A stretch of 24,000 bases of DNA, taken from Moorella naiadis (nom. illeg.) (GTDB lineage: Bacteria; Bacillota; DSM-521; Neomoorellales; Neomoorellaceae). The DNA is taken from assembly GCF_051020825.1 (NCBI RefSeq), contig NZ_JAXGFQ010000009.1:42387-66386 (forward strand). Direction: 5' to 3'. The position numbers were made by a program, and so were the translations under genes. Below, piece after piece: positions 2,440 through 20,494 of the stretch. Within the stretch, counting starts at the first letter, position 1, and every line of letters begins with the position of its first letter. Below the pieces are notes generated by a model. It was not told the DNA's origin. It worked only from the letters and a program-made list of their open reading frames with translations, and searched no databases.

Positions 2440-2535
2440 TATGGTGCCAGATCACGAATTAATTATGTTACTGTTCGCTGGAACTATGCTCGCCGGTTTA
2501 TGACCAACTGGTGCAGGCTTGACGGGGGTAGTATC

Positions 2536-3090
2536 ATGGGGGTCTCCGAATCCGTTCCCGGTACTGGCCCGGGTGCTCCTGGGCTGAATAACTACCAGCA
2601 ACAGCTAGAGTACCTCATGCGCCGTTTCGGCGACAAGGTCCTCTACCTGGCTTACTCTTACCTCCATGACCGCTACCTGGCCGAAGACGTGGCCCAGGAG
2701 GTTTTTATCCGGGTTTATACCAACCTGGATAAATTTCAGGGCCGCAGCTCTATCTATACCTGGATCTATCACATCACCGTCAACCTCTGCCGTGACTACC
2801 TGCGGGCCCAGAGCCGGCGGCGCCTGGAGCCGAATAGGTTATTGGAGGTTGCCGTCCCGGATGTTGAGGCTATGGCCCTGGCCAACCTCGAGTACCGGGA
2901 ATTATGGCAGGCTATTTTACAGCTTCCTGTGACCTACCGCGAGGTAATCTGGCTACACTACTACGACCAGTTAAGCCTGAAAGATATAGCAGCTATACTG
3001 GACATTTCCCTGGCAGCGGTAAAGATCCGCCTATATCGCGCCCGGCAACGGCTGCAACAGGTTTTAAAGGTGGGTGACCAAGTTGAATAA
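2536..3090 (+). CDS. ECF-type RNA polymerase sigma-70 factor
   Basis: Region 2 is AEDVAQEVFIRVYTNLDKFQGRSSIYTWIYHITVNLCRDYLR. Region 4 helix-turn-helix is LSLKDIAAILDISLAAVKIRLYRARQRL. I prefer the ATG at 2536 (GGGGGT 8 nt upstream) over the track's 2500, which has no SD. The start is uncertain. Confidence 0.8.
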   Translation: MGVSESVPGTGPGAPGLNNYQQQLEYLMRRFGDKVLYLAYSYLHDRYLAEDVAQEVFIRVYTNLDKFQGRSSIYTWIYHITVNLCRDYLRAQSRRRLEPNRLLEVAVPDVEAMALANLEYRELWQAILQLPVTYREVIWLHYYDQLSLKDIAAILDISLAAVKIRLYRARQRLQQVLKVGDQVE

Positions 3091-3781
3091 GCATAAGGAT
3101 CAACTTGAGGAACTGCTGGCCGGACTACCAACCCATACGCCGCCGCCCCTGGCCGGCTGGCACTTCTCAGCGGACCTGCGCCAACAAGTACAAAAGCGGG
3201 CAGCCTCATTACAGGACTCACCGCAGGACCAGATCCATCAAGCAGGCAACGGGGGGGGTTGCGGCGGCGCTATTCCCGGATTGACTATACCGGTACTGGC
3301 TTGCTCCTCCCCCAAGAAAGTTTCCCCGGGTCTCTTGTGCCGGTTACGGCATTTCCGGCCGGGCCTAGTTGCAGGCCTGATTGTAATATTTGTTTTGCTG
3401 GCCTGGTGGTATCGACCGTGGGATGGCAACTACTGGTCAGAGGTACCCGGCGGGCCGCCGGCGGGTTTCCAGGTCAAACCCATCCAGTACCAGTGGGTTA
3501 ATCTGAATGACCCCTACCGGGAAGCTGTAGTCAGCATTGGCAGGGTGGCAGGCTCCAACCAGCTCCTGGCGGCTATAAGTAAACGACGGGAACCGGCGGG
3601 CTGGCAACTGATTTATACCCAGCCCTTGAACGCTTACCTGGTGCTGCCGGTAAAGGTAGTCCACGCTAACGCTAACCAGGTTACCCTGATCCTCATCGCT
3701 TATCAGGAACAGCAGGAGGAGGGTTACCGTTACCTAATCCTCAGCTTTGATGGTGAAAGGGTAATACCATATAACCAGTAA
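3074..3781 (+). CDS. Putative membrane-anchored anti-sigma factor
   Basis: The GTG start overlaps the sigma gene stop by 17 nt, suggesting translational coupling. A single hydrophobic span (LVAGLIVIFVLLAWW) separates a short N-terminal cytoplasmic part from an extracytoplasmic domain. The call rests on position and topology only; I recognised no family motif. Confidence 0.5.
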   Translation: MTKLNKHKDQLEELLAGLPTHTPPPLAGWHFSADLRQQVQKRAASLQDSPQDQIHQAGNGGGCGGAIPGLTIPVLACSSPKKVSPGLLCRLRHFRPGLVAGLIVIFVLLAWWYRPWDGNYWSEVPGGPPAGFQVKPIQYQWVNLNDPYREAVVSIGRVAGSNQLLAAISKRREPAGWQLIYTQPLNAYLVLPVKVVHANANQVTLILIAYQEQQEEGYRYLILSFDGERVIPYNQ

Positions 3782-5236: not shown

Positions 5237-6211
5237 ATGGCGGCACAGGAAGCAGTTATTGTCACCCGCAACCTTACTAAGCATTATGGCAGCATCACCG
5301 CTGTCCAGGATTTGAACCTGGAAATCCAGCGGGGGGAGATCTTCGGTTTGTTGGGACCCAATGGTGCCGGTAAGACGACCACCATCCTGATGCTCCTGGG
5401 CCTGACCGAGCCGACCGGCGGCCAGGCCCTGGTGCAGGGTCTGGAAGCCACCCGCCATCCATTGGAGGTTAAAAGAATCATCGGCTACCTGCCGGATAAC
5501 GTCGGTTTTTACGACGATTTGACGGCCAGGGAAAACCTGCTCTATACGGCCAGTTTAAACCAGATCCCTGCGGGTGTGGCCAGGCAGAGATTGGAAGCAG
5601 CCCTGGCGGAGGTTGGCCTGGCGGACGTCGCCGGCCGCCGGGTACGGGAGTTCTCCCGCGGCATGCGGCAACGCCTGGGCATCGCCGATGTAATCCTGAA
5701 AGACCCGTCGATCATTATTCTCGACGAACCCACCCTGGGGATTGATCCCCAGGGCGTCAAGGAATTACTGGACCTAATTGTCCGCCTAGCCCGGGAGCGG
5801 GGGAAGACCATCCTTATCTCCTCCCACCTTCTGCACCAAGTCCAGCAGGTCTGCGACCGGGTGGGAATCTTTGTCGGCGGCAAGCTGATAGCCGTAGGAC
5901 CGGTGGCCCTCCTGGGGCAGCAGGTCATGGCTGGTAAGCTTCTGGAGGTTGAACTCCAGGCCGAGCCGGATAATAACGACCTGCTGGCTGCCCTGGAGGC
6001 CTTGCCCGGTGTGGCCGCCGTAGAACGTCGCGGTGCCTTTATCCGGGTGAGCTGCGCGGCCGGCGTTGATATCCGCCGTGAACTGGCCCCCTACCTGGCC
6101 GGCAAGGGATTTACCCTGTTCTATTTACGGGCCCGAGGTTATGACCTGGATGATATCTACCGCCAGTATTTCCAGGGTGAGGCGTTCACGGTGCACGCTG
6201 CCACTAGCTAA
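5237..6211 (+). CDS. ABC transporter ATP-binding protein
   Basis: Walker [10 protein letters not shown], signature-like FSRGMRQRL, Walker B IIILDEPT and H-loop SSHLL are present. The ATG at 5237 gives the canonical N-terminus ([18 protein letters not shown]). The track's 5153 start would overlap the upstream gene by 82 nt. Confidence 0.9.
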
Positions 6212-7328: not shown

Positions 7329-7461
7329 TGTTTGCTATTTTGCTATAATCTCTTTTCCCAGGAGACGGAGCGAAACGCAAGCGAAGCGAAGGGAAACCTA
7401 ACCTGCCGGGGGCCTGAGGGGATTTCCACGGGTTATAGCGGCCGGCAGAATAAGAGAATGA

Positions 7462-7491
7462 GGACAGCAAAATTAGCTGCCCTCGTTTTTT
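7462..7491 (+). terminator. Weak Rho-independent terminator, probable end of the ABC operon
   Basis: ggacagc-aaaatta-gctgccc forms an imperfect stem (4 bp, one mismatch, 2 bp), followed by tcg and T6. Confidence 0.35.
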
Positions 7492-7531
7492 ATGATTATA
7501 TTTACGGCTTAAAAATTTAATACAGGTTATT

Positions 7532-7560
7532 GGAGGATTTAGGTAAACTATGTCGAAATA
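7532..7560 (+). promoter_or_regulatory. Sigma-H (Spo0H)-like promoter motif, copy A
   Basis: ggAGGATTT, an 11-nt spacer, then gtcGAAAta. The remembered consensus is RnAGGAwWW-N11-12-RnnGAATww, so there is one mismatch in the -10 (GAAA instead of GAAT). Confidence 0.4.
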
Positions 7561-7630
7561 CGAAAAAAATAGTATCCAATAAAGGAGCCAAGGCAATGTT
7601 ATATATCTCAATAAATACCATAAATTCCCT

Positions 7631-7647
7631 GGGGGGGGGGGGGGGGG
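7631..7647 (+). repeat. Homopolymeric G17 tract
   Basis: I counted 17 consecutive G. The flanks (ccct / ATATTTTACCA) are conserved with copy B. Confidence 0.95.
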
Positions 7648-7927
7648 ATATTTTACCACCCCCACCAGAAAAAACAACTACCTTATAGTTATATTATCAT
7701 CCCCCTCTTTCTCTTTTGCTATTTTTATCTATCTTGTGATTCCTCCAGCCTGTCTTGCGATCTGGGGCCGCAAGACCCTATCTTACCATATACCCCCTCC
7801 CCTCTTTATCTTCCAGGTGATTTATTACGTTTACGATCGTTACGCTCGCCACCATTCCTCTGATCAGGGTTGCCTTATTACCTTCAGCTGCAAGTGATAA
7901 TTACCGCGGCTTACAGGAGGCAATGCC

Positions 7928-7990
7928 ATGAGCAGAGGCCTATTGGAGATGGGAGTCACTAAAGTGCGCCTCAGCAGCAAAGAAATCTAA
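7928..7990 (+). pseudogene. 20-codon remnant of an HD-GYP gene 5' end (may act as a uORF)
   Basis: AGGAGG is followed 8 nt later by an ATG. The peptide MSRGLLEMGVTKVRLSSKEI* aligns with the N-terminus of the HD-GYP protein at 19484 (MSKDSSFMGARIVPRLTINY), and nucleotide homology continues upstream. It stops 15 nt before the CheY start. Confidence 0.5.
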
Positions 7991-8005
7991 CTGGAGGCAA
8001 ATTTA

Positions 8006-15437: not shown

Positions 15438-16256
15438 GTGGGTGTGTTCGGTGAAATCGAACCAGAAACTATTATCAATGCTGCCATTGAACTCTTAAAA
15501 AAAGAGGGACGGGTCGACCTGCAATGGAACGAGATTTCCGCTTTAACCCGAGACCTTTGCCTGGCCCTGGCGGCAGATATTGAGCAGCCCGCTTTTACGA
15601 CGGCGGAGCTGGAGAAAGAAATCACAGATAAAGTTAAGCTACTCTTTGCCCGGGGTTACCATATTGAAAACCTCCAGCTAATATTGGAAAAAATTCTGGA
15701 TAGCTTTATCGGGACTTTACAGGATCAGGGTACCGATCTCCAGGCAGCAGTACCTTATATAAGCACTGTGCGGGAACATATCTTTAAAGGAACGACCTTC
15801 TTGTTACGAACAGCCCTACAGACCCAGCGCGAGGTTATCGAGAAGCAAAACGAAGCTTTAATGGAGCTGTCTACTCCGGTCATCCCTTTAATGCAGGACA
15901 TCCTTTTGCTGCCGTTAATCGGCACCATCGATACCCGCCGGGCCAAAGAGATAATGGATAATCTCTTAGCAGGCATCGTCCAATACCAGGCCGAGGTTGC
16001 CCTGATCGACATCAGCGGCGTGCCGGTGGTAGATACCCAGGTAGCCCATCACTTGATCAAAACCGTCAAGGCCGCCAGGCTTTTAGGCAGCCGCTGTATC
16101 TTAGTCGGCATCAGGCCGGAACTGGCCCAGACAATTGTCCGCCTGGGGATTGACTTCCAGGATATTATCACTAAAAACAACCTCCAGGCCGGGCTGGTAC
16201 TGGCTTTTCGCTGGCTGGGTTATAAGCTGGAGCGGGTGGAACGGGATGATGCATAA
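15438..16256 (+). CDS. rsbR: RsbR-like stressosome sensor protein (N-terminal sensor domain plus C-terminal STAS)
   Basis: The C-terminal STAS domain reads TPVIPLMQDILLLPLIGTIDTRRAKEIMDNLL...ALIDISGVPVVDTQVAHHLIKTVKAARLLGSRCILVGIRPELAQTIVRLGI. AAGGAGG lies 9 nt upstream of the GTG start. Confidence 0.85.
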   Translation: MGVFGEIEPETIINAAIELLKKEGRVDLQWNEISALTRDLCLALAADIEQPAFTTAELEKEITDKVKLLFARGYHIENLQLILEKILDSFIGTLQDQGTDLQAAVPYISTVREHIFKGTTFLLRTALQTQREVIEKQNEALMELSTPVIPLMQDILLLPLIGTIDTRRAKEIMDNLLAGIVQYQAEVALIDISGVPVVDTQVAHHLIKTVKAARLLGSRCILVGIRPELAQTIVRLGIDFQDIITKNNLQAGLVLAFRWLGYKLERVERDDA

Positions 16257-16620
16257 CCGGGTACCCATCCTTAAAGTAGATAATTTCTGGCTGGTGACCA
16301 TTGAAGAAACCCTTCACGACCAGAGTGTTATCCAGTTTAAGGAGGATTTATTATATAATATCACCCGGGATGCCGGCGCGGGCCTGGTGATTGATATCAG
16401 TGCCCTGGAAGTGGTGGACAGTTTCGTGACCAGGGTCCTCATGGAGATCGGCAGGCTGGCCGGGTTGCTGGGCCTGCCCTTTGTCCTGACGGGCATCAAC
16501 CCGGCGGTAGCCATTACTTTAACGGAGATGGGCCTGGATCTCCAGGGTATGGCCACGGCTTTGAACTTGCAAAAGGGCCTGGATATGTTAAAAGGTAGGG
16601 CCAGGGGGGAGCCAAAATGA
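16246..16620 (+). CDS. rsbS: RsbS-like single STAS-domain stressosome scaffold/antagonist
   Basis: MMHNRVPILKVDNFWLVTIEETLHD...VIDISALEVVDSFVTRVLMEIGRLAGLLGLPFVLTGINPAVAITL. The ATGATG at 16246 overlaps the rsbR stop. The track's 16135 start would lie deep inside rsbR. Confidence 0.85.
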   Translation: MMHNRVPILKVDNFWLVTIEETLHDQSVIQFKEDLLYNITRDAGAGLVIDISALEVVDSFVTRVLMEIGRLAGLLGLPFVLTGINPAVAITLTEMGLDLQGMATALNLQKGLDMLKGRARGEPK

Positions 16621-17024
16621 CATCTGGGCAAACCCTCCCCATCACCAGCGAATATGATATAATTACGGCCCGGCAGGCAGCCCGGGAACTGGCCCGGCAA
16701 ATAGGCTTCAACACAGTGGACCAGGTGCGGATAGCCACGGCCGTCTCGGAACTGACTCGCAACGTGATCCTTTACGCCGGTTCCGGCAAGGTGGATATAG
16801 AAGCGGTAGCCGAGGGAGAACGCCAGGGCATCGTGATTACCGTCAGCGACCGAGGGCCAGGCATCGCCGATATCGAGCAGGCTTTAAGGGACGGCTATTC
16901 GACCAGTAATGGCCTGGGTGCGGGCCTCTCTGGAGCTAAGCGACTAATGGATACCTTTGACATAGAATCCCGGGCCGGCCGGGGTACCACTATCAGGATT
17001 GGGAAGTGGAAGCACTGGAAGTAG
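16617..17024 (+). CDS. rsbT: RsbT-like serine/threonine kinase (GHKL ATPase)
   Basis: 135 aa with N box SELTRNVILYA and G boxes DRGPGI and GLGAGLSGAKRLMD. The ATGA overlap couples it to rsbS. Confidence 0.85.
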   Translation: MTSGQTLPITSEYDIITARQAARELARQIGFNTVDQVRIATAVSELTRNVILYAGSGKVDIEAVAEGERQGIVITVSDRGPGIADIEQALRDGYSTSNGLGAGLSGAKRLMDTFDIESRAGRGTTIRIGKWKHWK

Positions 17025-17584
17025 GAATTTATACCCGGGCCAGGGAAGGGGAATTCACCTGCGGTGATGCCTGCCTGGTCAAGGACGAAGCAGGTATTCT
17101 TAATCTGGCCGTAGTTGACGGTATTGGCCACGGACCAGAAGCCGCCCGGGCTGCGGCTGAAGCTATTGCTTGCCTGGAAACCGGCCTGGATGTCGGCCTG
17201 GAAAATATATTCCGGCGTTGTCATCAAAGGTTAATAGGGACCAGGGGAGCCGTTGCCGCCCTGTGCCAGGTTGATAAAAAAGGGGGCCTTTGGCAGGCAG
17301 CCGTTGTAGGTAATATCCTTTTACAGATCCTGGCCGGCAAGATAGTAACCCCTTTAACTACTCCTGGTATCCTGGGTTATAATTACCCGCGCCGGCTTTT
17401 AATTCATCGGGGGCCATATCAGGAGGGGGATCTTTTTTTAATCCACTCGGACGGTATTCAGGAAGGCGCGGTCTCTCCGGCCGCTTTAGTGAATTCCCCC
17501 CTTCCCCCGCAGGAACTGGCCCGGCTAATAGGGGAAGGTTACGGCCGCCGGGATGATGACGTCGCCGTTATAGTTGCCAGGTAA
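17006..17584 (+). CDS. rsbX: RsbX-like PP2C/SpoIIE-family phosphatase
   Basis: 192 aa with metal-binding Asp contexts CGDACLV, AVVDGIGHG, LIHSDGI and DDDVAVIVAR. The GTG start overlaps rsbT by 19 nt. Confidence 0.8.
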   Translation: MEALEVGIYTRAREGEFTCGDACLVKDEAGILNLAVVDGIGHGPEAARAAAEAIACLETGLDVGLENIFRRCHQRLIGTRGAVAALCQVDKKGGLWQAAVVGNILLQILAGKIVTPLTTPGILGYNYPRRLLIHRGPYQEGDLFLIHSDGIQEGAVSPAALVNSPLPPQELARLIGEGYGRRDDDVAVIVAR

Positions 17585-18900
17585 TGGAGGGCGAGCCCGC
17601 AATGGAAATAAAATGGCAGGAAGCCTACCTCGAGCTCTTACGGCAATATAGCCGGCAGCAGAGCGAAGCCATCCTCTATGAAGCCTCAAAATTGAGCAAA
17701 GCGCTGGTTGAGAGGGGCGTTGGTCCTGAAGATCTAGTCCAATTTCACTTGGAAGCCCTGGAAGGACTCTTCAGGGATATCTCCCCCTTGCGGGTACCGG
17801 GCCTGATTCTCATGTCCTTCGACCTGCTTCTGGAAGTAATGATGGCTTACGCCCTCAGTTTTCGGGAATACCTGGAGGTAAAAGATAAACTCATTGCGCG
17901 TCTGGAAACCTTTAATCAAGAATTAACTGCCGCCAACAGCAACCTGGAAACGAAAGTGCAAGAGCTTACGGTAATCCAGGATATGACCAGGGAATTGGGT
18001 GCCTGTTTGGACCTGGAGCTGACAGCCAGAATTATTACCCGGCACCTGCGGGAGCTGTTCCACTGCACCGGCGGATTGTACCTGGTCAATGGCAGCGGCG
18101 AATGGCAAGGTTATACCCTGGAAGAAACCCTGGTGCATAGTGCCCCGCCGGGAGATCTGGCAGCCGGAGCCAGACAATCGGCCAGGCTAGCAGGGCGAGA
18201 CTTGACCCTGCCCTTGGTCATCGGCCAGGAGGTTGGCGGCGCCGTCTTTTTACAAAAAGAAGGAGGATTTAGCGCCGACGAGGTCCGGTTGGCGGAGATC
18301 ATCGCCGGTTATGCCGCCTTGGCCGTTGAGCGCGCCCAGCTGTACGAAGCCATGAAACGCCAAGCCACCATTGACGCCAAGACGGGTTTATATAACTACC
18401 AGCATATGATGGAGTTGCTAGAAAAAGAGCTGGCCCGCGCCCGGCGTTACCAGCGTACCTTTACCTTAGCCATGCTCGATATCGATGACTTTAAGGTTTA
18501 TAACGACACTCACGGCCACCGGCAGGGAGACAAAACCCTCCAAAGAATAGCAGCCATCATCCAATCCAGCATCCGGGAGGTCGATATAGCAGCGCGTTAC
18601 GGCGGCGAAGAATTTGTCATGATCATGCCAGAAACTAATACCCTGGAAGCAACTGCTGTAACCGAAAGGGTACGCCGGAATATCATGAACGCCGCTATCG
18701 ATAATGAGGGCTGCGGTCCGGGCCGGGTGTTGACGGTGAGTATCGGGCTGGCCACCTACCCTCTGGATGCCGCCACAATCGGGGAGTTGATTGATGCTGC
18801 CGACAGCGCCCTCTACATGGCCAAGGCACAGGGGAAAAACACGGTCCGAGTGTTCGGTAAAGCTGACAGGTGGCGATCTGATAAGGAAAGGGTCTTTTAG
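17584..18900 (+). CDS. Diguanylate cyclase with RsbU_N-like, GAF and GGDEF domains
   Basis: The N-terminus resembles the RsbU N-terminal (RsbT-binding) helical domain: WQEAYLELLRQYSRQQSEAILYEASKLSKALVERGVGPEDLVQFHLEAL. A GAF-like middle follows. The GGDEF domain has TGLYNY, DIDDFKVYNDTHGH, an active-site GGEEF and an RxxD I-site (REVD) 5 residues upstream. The start is ATG 17584 (TAATG overlap) or ATG 17602 (GGAGGG 10 nt upstream). Confidence 0.9.
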   Translation: MEGEPAMEIKWQEAYLELLRQYSRQQSEAILYEASKLSKALVERGVGPEDLVQFHLEALEGLFRDISPLRVPGLILMSFDLLLEVMMAYALSFREYLEVKDKLIARLETFNQELTAANSNLETKVQELTVIQDMTRELGACLDLELTARIITRHLRELFHCTGGLYLVNGSGEWQGYTLEETLVHSAPPGDLAAGARQSARLAGRDLTLPLVIGQEVGGAVFLQKEGGFSADEVRLAEIIAGYAALAVERAQLYEAMKRQATIDAKTGLYNYQHMMELLEKELARARRYQRTFTLAMLDIDDFKVYNDTHGHRQGDKTLQRIAAIIQSSIREVDIAARYGGEEFVMIMPETNTLEATAVTERVRRNIMNAAIDNEGCGPGRVLTVSIGLATYPLDAATIGELIDAADSALYMAKAQGKNTVRVFGKADRWRSDKERVF

Positions 18901-18930
18901 CCAGGGGACAGCAATATGGCTGTCCCCTGG
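18901..18930 (+). terminator. Strong hairpin, probable terminator of the stressosome-DGC operon
   Basis: ccaggggacagc-aatatg-gctgtcccctgg is a perfect 12-bp stem. The downstream T tract is short (cttt). Confidence 0.65.
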
Positions 18931-19011
18931 CTTTAATACTGGGTTAAGGTGACTTAGGGAAACAGCGATTAATTTCGCTTAAAAGTGATGCTGTAAAAAT
19001 TGATGTAGGAT

Positions 19012-19040
19012 GGAGGATTTAGGTAAAACGTGTCGAATAA
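19012..19040 (+). promoter_or_regulatory. Sigma-H (Spo0H)-like promoter motif, copy B
   Basis: ggAGGATTT, an 11-nt spacer, then gtcGAATaa. This is a full match to the remembered consensus RnAGGAwWW-N11-12-RnnGAATww. Confidence 0.5.
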
Positions 19041-19111
19041 AAAATATGCAATAAATACCAATAAAGAGGGCGAAATAATGCTATTAAGCCCCACTAATCC
19101 CAGTAACTTCC

Positions 19112-19125
19112 GGGGGGGGGGGGGG
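19112..19125 (+). repeat. Homopolymeric G14 tract
   Basis: I counted 14 consecutive G at the same position in the element as the G17 of copy A. Confidence 0.95.
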
Positions 19126-19483
19126 TATATTTTACCATCCCTACCAGAAAAAATAAATCCCCCATGCCTGGATGTATTCGTTTTTCCTTCCCTATGCTTC
19201 ATATCCGGCGCAAGAACTACTCCCTCAACGCTGCAAGCACCCTCCGGCCTGTCTGCTTACCCGCGGTTGCAAGGCCATATCTTGCCTTCTACCCGTGCTA
19301 ATTTCCCAAGCGCGGATCATTCCCTTTTACGCTCTTTATATCCTTTACGGTCGCCCCCTGGTCGAGACTACCCTCATAAGCACCGGCTGCTCTTAAACAC
19401 TATTACTTTACGCATCTTTAACCTAGATGTAGCATAGCAGCTGAAGTCAAACCTTTTAACATCGCACCCAGGGGGGTCTGGCC

Positions 19484-20494
19484 ATGAGCAAAGATAGTAG
19501 TTTTATGGGCGCAAGGATTGTTCCCAGATTAACAATCAACTATCTAGTCTTGCCAAACCCTACAGTGAGAATATTTTTACGGGGTACAGCTTTCCTTTTA
19601 TTAATGGTCGTTACGATGTTGAACTATCACGTTCGGAACCTGCCGGCCCAGATTATCATCGATTTTCTGTACCTTATTCCGATAACCGTAGCCGCAATGA
19701 ATTCCTTCATTGATGGCCTGGTAACCGCCCTGGCGGCAGGTTACCTGCGTCTCTTTATCAACCCGGTGACCTTTTCCTTCCTCAAAGCTACTGATTATGT
19801 TGATTTGATTATAGTTTTAGGCTTTTACCTGCTGGACCCCGTGCTGGTAGAACTATTAAGGCGTCTCGCCCGGCAGCGGCGACAACTGGGCCAAAACCTG
19901 TATATTACTACGGCCGCCCTGCTGGAGGCATTACATCTGCGTGACCAGTATACCGGCCGGCACTCGCGCCAGGTAGCTGGTTATGCCCGCCGGCTGGCCG
20001 CCGCTTTAGATTTACCCCGGGATTATCAAGAGAGCCTGTACCTGGCCGGATTACTCCATGACATCGGGAAAATTGGCATTAATGACGCCTGCTTGAATAA
20101 ACCAGGGCGGTTGACGCCGGAGGAATGGCAAGCTATCCGCCGCCACCCGCAGTTAAGCTACAATATAGTAAAAAAGGTTGATAAAATCGAAGAAGGGATT
20201 GCCCGGGCAGTCCTTTATCACCACGAACGCTATGACGGCCGGGGCTACCCCCAAGGGCTGAAGGGAGAGGCTATTCCCCTAGAAGCACGTATCTTAAGTG
20301 TAGCCGATTGCTATGACGCCATGACTACCAACCGGGTTTACCGGCCCGCCCTGACCCCGGTTGAGGCTGTCAGGGAGTTAAAGCGTTGCGCCGGTAGCCA
20401 GTTTGATCCGCAAATAGTGGATGTTTTTTGCCGTATCCTGGCCGCAGATGGTCTTAATCAAGATCATAAAGATAAAGCCCACGATCTTTGCTAA
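19484..20494 (+). CDS. Membrane-anchored HD-GYP domain protein (c-di-GMP phosphodiesterase type)
   Basis: The N-terminal part of about 120 aa is hydrophobic (several TM spans). The HD-GYP motifs are HDIGK and HHERYDGRGYP. The SD AGGGGGG lies 7 nt upstream of the ATG. Confidence 0.9.
   Translation: MSKDSSFMGARIVPRLTINYLVLPNPTVRIFLRGTAFLLLMVVTMLNYHVRNLPAQIIIDFLYLIPITVAAMNSFIDGLVTALAAGYLRLFINPVTFSFLKATDYVDLIIVLGFYLLDPVLVELLRRLARQRRQLGQNLYITTAALLEALHLRDQYTGRHSRQVAGYARRLAAALDLPRDYQESLYLAGLLHDIGKIGINDACLNKPGRLTPEEWQAIRRHPQLSYNIVKKVDKIEEGIARAVLYHHERYDGRGYPQGLKGEAIPLEARILSVADCYDAMTTNRVYRPALTPVEAVRELKRCAGSQFDPQIVDVFCRILAADGLNQDHKDKAHDLC

Follow-up and report, generated by a model that had tools for sequence, protein, structure and literature searches.

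A guanine tract within a conserved upstream open reading frame ahead of c-di-GMP and chemotaxis signalling genes in Moorella and its relatives: a putative case of repeat-mediated phase variation

Which function preserves short sequence blocks in two long and otherwise diverged leaders that precede genes of cyclic di-GMP (c-di-GMP) and phosphorelay signalling? This question is raised by a stretch of 24,000 nucleotides from Moorella naiadis (nom. illeg.) (contig NZ_JAXGFQ010000009.1, positions 42,387 to 66,386, hereafter the window), in which one leader (copy A) precedes a cheY-like gene and a second one (copy B) the gene of a membrane HD-GYP phosphodiesterase. The two regions are paralogous copies of the promoter-leader module of a membrane HD-GYP c-di-GMP phosphodiesterase gene. 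The module comprises, in this order, a SigH-type promoter, a Shine-Dalgarno (SD) sequence with an ATG start codon approximately 30-60 nucleotides further on, an upstream open reading frame (uORF) with an uninterrupted G tract, a spacer, and a G-rich ribosome-binding site (RBS). We hold this anatomical description with high confidence. Concerning its function, we tentatively favour, as a proposal drawn from sequence comparison, that the G tract within the uORF exerts a stochastic, frame-dependent control over the downstream genes.

Local alignment of the intergenic regions 7329-8005 and 18901-19483 yielded a score of 109, whereas 200 base-shuffled copies reached 27 at most (20 ± 2) and the reverse complement 25. 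The colinearity noticed in an earlier inspection of the letters alone (the sequence-only reading) is thereby borne out, and both blocks that it had quoted as perfectly or nearly conserved are indeed exact. The similarity is strongest between 7506-7677 and 18989-19156 (approximately 80% identity) and drops further 3′ to only about 48%, interrupted by conserved islands such as GCTCGCC(A/C)CC at 7844 and 19350, respectively. Among the conserved blocks, TGGAGGATTTAGGTAAA is exact in both copies (7531-7547 and 19011-19027) and ATATTTTACCAyCCCyACCAGAAAAAA is common to positions 7648-7674 of copy A and 19127-19153 of copy B. Colinearity ends at GCCATGAGCArAG, which harbors a start codon common to both copies (7928 and 19484, respectively). 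The conserved blocks are accounted for by the SigH-type promoter, the RBS and start codon of the leader open reading frame (ORF), this ORF itself, the G tract, and the start-codon remnant.

From relatives, the sequences preceding the orthologues of HD-GYP and CheY were then retrieved and compared (Table 1; L numbers denote the loci). As had been stated, copy B leads into the membrane HD-GYP gene and copy A into cheY. The description of the latter as an orphan gene proved incomplete, since it passed over an HD-GYP gene that once stood in between and was lost by deletion. A remnant of 20 codons is left of this gene, which stops 2 nucleotides before the RBS of cheY (GGAGG, 7993-7997). In Thermanaeromonas toyohensis the order is leader, HD-GYP gene (322 amino acids) and cheY. 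Correspondingly, the cheY orthologues follow the same leader in Neomoorella glycerini and the HD-GYP gene in T. toyohensis. The locus with the closest CheY relative (L036, 83% identity) carries an internally deleted HD-GYP pseudogene between leader and cheY, in which residues 1-39 are joined to the HD motif LYLAGLLHDLG. At the N. glycerini locus (L035), the N-terminal 7 codons of the HD-GYP gene and the C-terminal fragments FDAMTSERV and RPDLVLAEAVRELQRDADSQ remain. Judged from these comparisons, copy A once served as leader to an HD-GYP paralogue that has since been lost, and it abuts cheY because the intervening gene was deleted down to 20 codons. Since the 5′-end of the HD-GYP gene forms part of both copies, these stem from a segmental duplication of gene and leader and do not represent a free-standing element. 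Of the earlier statement that the pattern is not that of a recent duplication or of a mobile element, the second part holds, whereas the module did arise by duplication. Promoter, uORF and tract are intact after decay of the gene in at least two lineages, which argues that the module is still in use, now for cheY.

The module precedes HD-GYP genes in Moorella, Neomoorella and Thermanaeromonas, as well as cheY orthologues with HD-GYP remnants in L035 and L036. In line with the earlier suggestion that the conserved blocks are under selection, they recur upstream of orthologues in three genera, while the remaining leader shows near-random identity. A profile of the core, run with nhmmer over 262 kb, matched all copies of the module and nothing else. 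Exactly two matches fell into the window, and in the 262 kb no copy was found outside the leaders of signalling genes. The module was missing at a more distant HD-GYP locus (L039, 49% identity). A scan of a genome collection, to which M. naiadis apparently does not belong, with TTTTACCANCCNNACCAGAAAA returned six single chance matches in unrelated phyla, and none of the 18 matches to GGGGGGNATATTTTAN10CAGNA in a metagenome scan was flanked by the anatomy of the module. N. humiferrea harbors a second copy behind the HD-GYP gene (L008 7320-7780; L009 1608-1755; L010 1601-1720), with the -10 sequence GTCGAAT and a tract of G14 or G13. In the same species, fliD, located 5′ of the leader, is split by an insertion sequence with HTH_Tnp_1 and rve domains (L008 2843-5405). 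Approximately 2 kb upstream of the leader, N. glycerini carries a group II intron together with its reverse transcriptase (L035 1003-2808).

The predicted promoter of the module conforms to AGGAwww-N11-RnnGAAT, equivalent to AGGA-N17-GAAT, which is present at the homologous position in eight of nine leaders. The SigH consensus known for Bacillus, Clostridioides difficile and acetogens consists of AGGA and GAAT separated by 17-18 nucleotides, and SigH motifs have been reported as common in M. thermoacetica (PMC12456013). Both elements are found at this spacing in these eight leaders, so that on sequence grounds a SigH-dependent promoter is predicted. Besides copies A and B, the motif occurs in L007, the first copy of L008, L011, L015, L035 and L037. 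The -10 sequence of L011 reads GAAG, and the second copy of L008 is devoid of AGGA. A scan with the sigma-70 consensus did not reveal a promoter in either leader of the window.

A purine-rich SD sequence followed by ATG is present in all nine leaders. The 11-13 codons between the ATG and the tract bear a conserved (S)INxIN or ANKC motif. The tract itself (8-23 nucleotides) is read as poly-glycine and is followed by about ten conserved codons of the pattern [YDV][IF][IL]Px[LIP][PA][EK][KN]. Both before and after the tract, the different genera share the same conserved peptide frame, and the differences before the tract include synonymous ones (TCA/TCC, CTG/CTA, TTA/CTA, and isoleucine as ATA/ATT/ATC). 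The leader peptides have no match in Pfam or NCBIfam. Peptide conservation ends approximately ten codons past the tract. On the minus strand, the block following the tract resembles an extended -10 element (7648-7660 and 19127-19139), at the same place also in L011, L013, L014, L015, L035 and L037.

As sequenced, the uORF comprises 59-121 codons in copy B, L011, L015 and the second copy of L008, and 28-41 codons in copy A, the first copy of L008, L035 and L037. The longest ORFs (119 codons in copy B, 121 in L011 and 107 in the second copy of L008) were considered as conserved proteins, which we rejected: substitutions in the copy B ORF are spread evenly over codon positions, indels are not multiples of three, and no homologous protein was found among 5.8 billion sequences. 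Gene callers annotate such ORFs as hypothetical proteins (L011 2670-3035, 121 amino acids; L008 7388-7711, 107 amino acids), which are probably not real proteins. Coding on the minus strand was likewise dismissed, since every frame is rich in stop codons in the six leaders inspected.

The most conspicuous component of the module is the G tract, which had not been singled out before. The G17 of copy A and the G14 of copy B are the sole runs of G or C longer than 8 nucleotides in the window, and the tracts of the module are the sole G or C runs of at least 12 nucleotides in about 92 kb of related DNA. A tract is present in 10 of 11 leaders, with lengths at homologous positions of G14, G19, G23, G14/13, G13, G12/13, G8 and at least G16. 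Mononucleotide tracts of 12-23 nucleotides are highly mutable by slipped-strand mispairing and prone to transcriptional slippage. The tracts of both copies exceed the length of about 8 nucleotides from which slippage is expected, and their placement inside an ORF led by SD and ATG entails that a change in length would alter the reading frame. Six short-read contigs have an end within a tract; L010 begins in the first tract of N. humiferrea and ends in the second. Two assemblies of N. humiferrea do not differ over 3864 nucleotides except in the second tract, which reads G14 in one and G13 in the other, the shorter version converting the 107-codon uORF to the short form. The length of the tract modulo 3 is split roughly evenly between long and short uORFs as sequenced, without a significant pattern.

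Downstream of the uORF core, a spacer of 160-360 nucleotides follows that is poorly conserved, pyrimidine-rich, G-poor and stop-poor. The diverged, pyrimidine-rich background described earlier is thus found as such: the pyrimidine fraction (Y) after the tract is 0.64 in copy A and 0.61 in copy B, with C/G ratios of 2.1 and 1.9, respectively, as compared with about 0.9 for the window. Ten leaders show C/G = 1.3-2.1 over 160-360 nucleotides, which resembles a Rho utilization (rut) site and thus marks a candidate Rho-loading site. Rho loading requires C-rich, G-poor and weakly structured RNA, and RNA of this kind, 80 nucleotides or more in length, lies 3′ of the uORF stop as expected for a Rho attenuator. 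The three frames after the tract close at 38, 213 and 247 of 280 nucleotides in copy A, and at 28, 173 and 309 nucleotides in copy B. In every leader one frame is open for 67-100% of the distance to the next gene, and in 9 of 10 leaders another one closes within 38 nucleotides. When compared with dinucleotide shuffles, the openness of the frames gave P = 0.02-0.17 per leader, and combined Fisher values of 5e-5 (ten leaders) and 5e-4 (seven distinct leaders). Beyond the first ten or so codons after the tract, the long frame shows no codon-position bias; this argues against selection on a protein and therefore fits the view that only the act of translation matters. The downstream RBS is a run of G5-6 that is predicted to be paired at more than 85%, usually with the conserved C-rich block GCTCGCCCCC. 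In the predicted folds of copy B, the G6 RBS pairs with 19352-19359.

Based on these features, we propose the following chain of events, to which we assign appreciable though less than even credence. The G tract would act as a hypermutable slippage site at replication, and probably at transcription too, and gain or loss of a single G would change the frame of the uORF. Since the tract lies inside an ORF that is to be translated, its length would set the frame and the stopping point of the ribosome: in one frame ribosomes would stop within about 40 nucleotides of the tract, in another they would travel 140-310 nucleotides and come close to the next start codon. Ribosomes moving along the C-rich leader could shield it from Rho-dependent termination, open the masked G-rich RBS, or both. 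The outcome would be that expression of the phosphodiesterase, or of CheY in the case of copy A, alternates at random between an ON and an OFF state, i.e., phase variation by means of a leader ORF. Precedents for both components have been documented, namely attenuation by Rho that depends on a uORF, and phase variation mediated by Rho in the leader of a Firmicute (PMC12360218).

Several observations weigh against this proposal. The combined Fisher values for the openness of the frames are optimistic, because the leaders are homologous and not independent. The long frame is not the same frame in different leaders, and the frame of the conserved peptide is the short one in copy A, L037 and L035. 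Conservation of the block after the tract extends to all codon positions, the third ones being invariant, which suggests an additional or alternative function at the nucleotide level. In N. thermoacetica (L007) the tract is lost, having decayed to AGAGGAAG, and the uORF is 21 codons long. Moreover, assemblies are prone to errors in the length of homopolymers, so that sequencing artefacts could underlie both the G14/G13 difference and the ON and OFF assignments; the states assigned to individual genomes are therefore provisional. A specific anti-SD helix between the C5 block and the G5 RBS was rejected, as shuffled spacers mask the RBS equally; its covariation is weak, with 73.6% of the cells paired as compared with 70 ± 2 in shuffles (29 of 500). 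According to these folding models, masking of the RBS is compositional and not specific. The idea that the G tract serves as a decoy that competes with the RBS for the C-rich block was rejected at equilibrium, since removing or resizing the tract in silico left the predicted accessibility of the RBS unchanged. Separately, the C-rich block of L007 is degraded as well (GCTCGTCCACGG); the joint loss of tract and block in this single case (5669-5770 and 5880-5900) may reflect co-evolution.

The nucleotide-level conservation next to the tract leads to a different explanation, which we regard as unlikely though far from negligible: the tract could act at the level of DNA or RNA without translation of the uORF, either by pausing or slipping of RNA polymerase on 14-23 G residues or as a roadblock formed by a G-quadruplex or an R-loop, with tract length or the guanosine triphosphate (GTP) pool tuning read-through. 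Such a device would agree with a pure run of G in place of mixed glycine codons, with its constant location on the sense (non-template) strand, with the flanking block conserved at all codon positions, with lengths varying as widely as from 8 to 23, and with target genes that turn over a messenger derived from GTP. A translation-independent device, however, has no need for the SD sequence, the ATG and peptide motifs that are conserved despite synonymous changes, and no terminator follows the tract. We know of no precedent for a translation-independent roadblock at a G tract. A more specific version, in which the tract senses the GTP pool as 14-23 G residues in a row are transcribed, regardless of slippage, read-through into the phosphodiesterase or cheY gene depends on GTP and tract length sets the threshold, appears very improbable; if true, it would couple c-di-GMP turnover to its precursor pool without a riboswitch or a protein sensor. 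Improbable, too, is that the block after the tract serves as a promoter, be it a minus-strand extended -10 element (TGGTAAAAT and TGGTATAAT, respectively) from which an antisense RNA starting in the C tract would counteract the SigH promoter, or a plus-strand -10 element (TATATT) for which the tract would provide a spacer of variable length. Phase variation classically makes use of tracts in promoter spacers, as in porA and opc of Neisseria and fim of Bordetella; TGGTA[AT]AAT directly precedes the C tract on the minus strand in 5 of 10 leaders, TA[AT]AAT is present in 7 of 10, and the invariant third codon positions of the block would be explained. Against this stands that no convincing -35 element is found on either strand, that the consensus scan did not flag the sites, and that the block also codes for the conserved I-[IL]-P motif. 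Moreover, an AT-rich block resembles a -10 element on both strands, so that this match is weak evidence.

Given a short ORF (21-41 codons or longer) with 4-7 consecutive GGG codons directly upstream of the regulated gene, one may also think of ribosome-mediated attenuation, as in his and trp, by which the charging of glycine tRNA would be sensed. Yet neither terminator nor antiterminator hairpins with a U run were found, the only hits being spurious poly-G matches, and no alternative folds are conserved. The tract is a strict homopolymer whose lengths (G8, G12, G13, G14, G17, G19, G23) do not come in multiples of three, and no link between glycine supply and c-di-GMP turnover is known to us; the likelihood of this explanation is accordingly very small. 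We consider it extremely improbable that the leaders contain a structured, riboswitch-like cis-regulatory RNA common to c-di-GMP and phosphorelay genes, as suggested in the sequence-only reading. The length of the leaders, the conserved blocks in a diverged background and a true c-di-GMP-I riboswitch nearby had made this idea attractive. In agreement with that reading, no described RNA family was recognized, as searches of Rfam remained negative in both copies even at E <= 10 and in the relatives, the c-di-GMP-I riboswitch (8455-8542) being located outside the element. That the element is an RNA family in its own right is not supported: the folding energies of the whole leaders are no better than those of shuffles (z = -1.2 and -1.05), and the RNAalifold consensus of the core (-1.46 kcal/mol) contains six trivial pairs with essentially no covariation. 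The blocks are explained by promoter, RBS, ORF and tract, and as far as these predictions go, the module is neither a known nor an evident structured RNA. Finally, copy A accompanies a decayed gene and one lineage (L007) has lost the tract, as one might expect of a neutral relic or of a selfish repeat akin to a miniature inverted-repeat transposable element, with the tract as a mutational accident. This possibility we rate as low, since promoter, uORF start, tract and flanking block persist over three genera and in both paralogues next to a leader of about 48% identity, and the module is also retained at loci that have lost the HD-GYP gene. As had been stated before, neither copy was found to have terminal inverted repeats, a target duplication or an adjacent transposase; BLAST searches of plasmid and phage records gave no match, and every copy occupies the same place relative to signalling genes. 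Taken together, position and flanks indicate that the module is not a mobile element.

Table 1. Coordinates of the module components and flanking features in the window, and homologous leaders of relatives.
Feature	Position	Strand	Sequence or remark
Terminator-like hairpin and T run, closing the upstream ABC-transporter operon; left limit of copy A	7460-7491	+	GAGGACAGCAAAATTAGCTGCCCTC, then GTTTTTT
SigH-type promoter, copy A	7534-7558	+	-35 AGGA 7534-7537, 17-nucleotide spacer, -10 GAAA 7555-7558, one mismatch to GAAT
SD sequence of uORF, copy A	7582-7587	+	AAGGAG, 8 nucleotides 5′ of ATG
uORF, copy A, 30 codons	7596-7688	+	MLYISINTINSL-GGGGG-DILPPPPEKTTTL, then stop
G tract, copy A	7631-7647	+	uninterrupted G17 inside the uORF
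Post-tract block, copy A	7648-7677	+	ATATTTTACCACCCCCACCAGAAAAAACAA, codes for (D)ILPPPPEK; minus strand: TGGTAAAAT, adjoining the C tract
Spacer, copy A	7689-7927	+	C-rich block GCTCGCCACC 7844-7853; RBS AGGAGG 7915-7920
Remnant of the deleted HD-GYP gene, 20 codons	7928-7990	+	MSRGLLEMGVTKVRLSSKEI, then stop; colinear with the start of the copy B gene
CheY-like single-domain response regulator, first intact gene after copy A	8006-8371	+	Pfam Response_reg, 1.4e-24
Hairpin at the end of the RsbU_N-GAF-GGDEF gene; left limit of copy B	18892-18939	+	inverted repeat with 24-nucleotide arms
SigH-type promoter, copy B	19014-19038	+	AGGA-N17-GAAT, exact match
SD sequence of uORF, copy B	19066-19070	+	GAGGG
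uORF, copy B, 119 codons as sequenced	19078-19437	+	MLLSPTNPSNFR-GGGG-YILPSLPEK...; stops 46 nucleotides before the HD-GYP start
G tract, copy B	19112-19125	+	uninterrupted G14 inside the uORF
Post-tract block, copy B	19126-19156	+	TATATTTTACCATCCCTACCAGAAAAAATAA
Spacer, copy B	19157-19483	+	C5 block GTCGCCCCCTGG 19350-19361; G6 RBS 19471-19476
Membrane HD-GYP c-di-GMP phosphodiesterase after copy B	19484-20494	+	Pfam HD_5, 8e-44
Leader of HD-GYP gene, L011, M. thermoacetica-like			G19
Leader of HD-GYP gene, L008 copy 1, N. humiferrea			G23
Leader of HD-GYP gene, L013 and L014, two Logan assemblies syntenic with N. thermoacetica			both contigs begin within the tract
Leader of HD-GYP gene, L015, metagenome			G8
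Leader of HD-GYP gene, L037 and L038, Thermanaeromonas toyohensis			G12 and G13
Leader of HD-GYP gene, L007, N. thermoacetica			tract decayed
Leader of cheY orthologue, L035, N. glycerini			G13
Leader of a 59-codon ORF, followed by genes for CheW and a methyl-accepting chemotaxis protein, L008 copy 2, N. humiferrea	7320-7468 of L008		G14
Leader peptide, T. toyohensis			MLCYSINAINFLN-GGGG-YIIPTLAANAIA, then stop
Leader peptide, L035			MKEQIVVANKCQN-G4-VFIPYIPKN...
Leader peptide after the tract, L013 and L014			...YIL[LI]FLPE[NK]...

Two further islands are common to both copies, CCTCCrGCCTGTCT (7742-7755 and 19241-19254) and GCAAGrCCnTATCTTrCC (7770-7787 and 19269-19286), and form a local hairpin in each of them; TATCTTAyC from the latter recurs in L013, L014 and L007. 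The hairpins 5′ of the two copies (7460-7484 and 18900-18932) resemble each other, sharing GGACAGCAA..GCTG.CCC, either by chance or because the duplicated unit reaches further to the left.

The genes around copy A are, in order, an ATP-binding cassette (ABC) transporter, the leader, cheY, the c-di-GMP-I riboswitch, a Cu_amine_oxidN1 protein, a CHASE3 kinase, a response regulator, and a response regulator-HD-GYP fusion. The riboswitch (RF01051, plus strand, 84 bits, full length) lies between cheY and the gene of the Cu_amine_oxidN1 protein (8627-9589), so that a poly-G leader, cheY and a c-di-GMP riboswitch are stacked at one locus. The cheY gene and the response regulator gene at 11325-11753, upstream of the fusion gene, are paralogous (approximately 72% DNA identity, spacing 3355). 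Copy B is surrounded by a partner-switching set, the hairpin, the leader, the membrane HD-GYP gene, an OmpR-type regulator and a HAMP kinase. The set (15438-18900, plus strand) consists of two STAS proteins (15438-16256 and 16135-16620), a HATPase_c kinase (16617-17024) and a PP2C protein (17006-17584), and ends in an RsbU_N-GAF-GGDEF diguanylate cyclase (17584-18900) directly 5′ of the leader; the synteny is also present in L011. The HD-GYP protein encoded behind copy B is 100% identical to an HD-GYP protein of Moorella naiadis. The third-longest G run of the window, a G8 at 3251-3258, lies inside an ORF (3074-3781, 235 amino acids, no Pfam match) that follows the gene of an ECF sigma factor (2500-3090) and may encode its anti-sigma factor.

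From the arrangement of its parts we infer that the module is best filed as repeat-mediated phase variation by a G tract in a conserved uORF ahead of c-di-GMP and chemotaxis signalling genes. If the proposed switch is true, free-living thermophilic acetogens would hedge their bets on the level of c-di-GMP, and hence on motility versus sessility, by means of a mononucleotide tract. In practical terms, the tracts break short-read assemblies and cause spurious 'hypothetical proteins' of 100-120 codons in Moorella genomes.

How does the module compare with known systems? Phase variation by homopolymeric tracts has been described for Neisseria, Campylobacter, Haemophilus, Bordetella and Mycobacterium (PMC8355987, PMC5084427, PMC1891110, PMC10334774). 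As at these loci, a long uninterrupted G or C tract resides in a reading frame and differs in length between genomes or assemblies. In contrast to them, the tract in Moorella is located in a leader ORF of 30-120 codons and neither in the regulated gene nor in a promoter spacer, so that it could influence the downstream gene only indirectly, by polarity or coupling. To our knowledge, the standard examples do not include a design of this kind, in which a repeat tract in a uORF would act through polarity or coupling. Whereas the known tract loci belong to host-adapted pathogens and are usually evolutionarily labile, the hosts here are free-living thermophilic acetogenic Firmicutes, and, unusually for contingency loci, three genera have kept the tract at the same position.

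In hisL and trpL, the leader peptides of amino-acid attenuation, one and the same codon is likewise repeated within a very short ORF that lies just ahead of the gene under control. The leaders studied here differ from them in two respects: no terminator or antiterminator was found, and the repeated codons form a strict homopolymer, the length of which varies and is not bound to triplets. With the Rho-dependent attenuation and translational coupling of tnaC-tnaAB and related cases they have in common a short ORF in a long leader, followed by C-rich and G-poor RNA whose coverage would vary with the stopping point of the ribosome (PMC12360218). In tnaC, the nascent peptide senses a small molecule as the signal, whereas the signal proposed here is the frame set by the length of the tract. 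Closest in the genes concerned are the phase-variable c-di-GMP phosphodiesterases pdcB and pdcC and the flgB switch of C. difficile (PMC9286219, PMC6837544), the OFF state of flgB being established after initiation by Rho-dependent termination in the leader (PMC12360218). Stochastic control located in the leader of c-di-GMP-degrading enzymes or signalling genes of a Firmicute, here as a proposal, would be shared by both. In C. difficile, however, DNA bounded by inverted repeats is inverted by RecV, whereas the Moorella leaders have no inverted repeats and vary in a mononucleotide tract. If the proposal holds, the module would thus represent a convergent counterpart of the invertible-DNA switches that act on the c-di-GMP phosphodiesterases of C. 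difficile.

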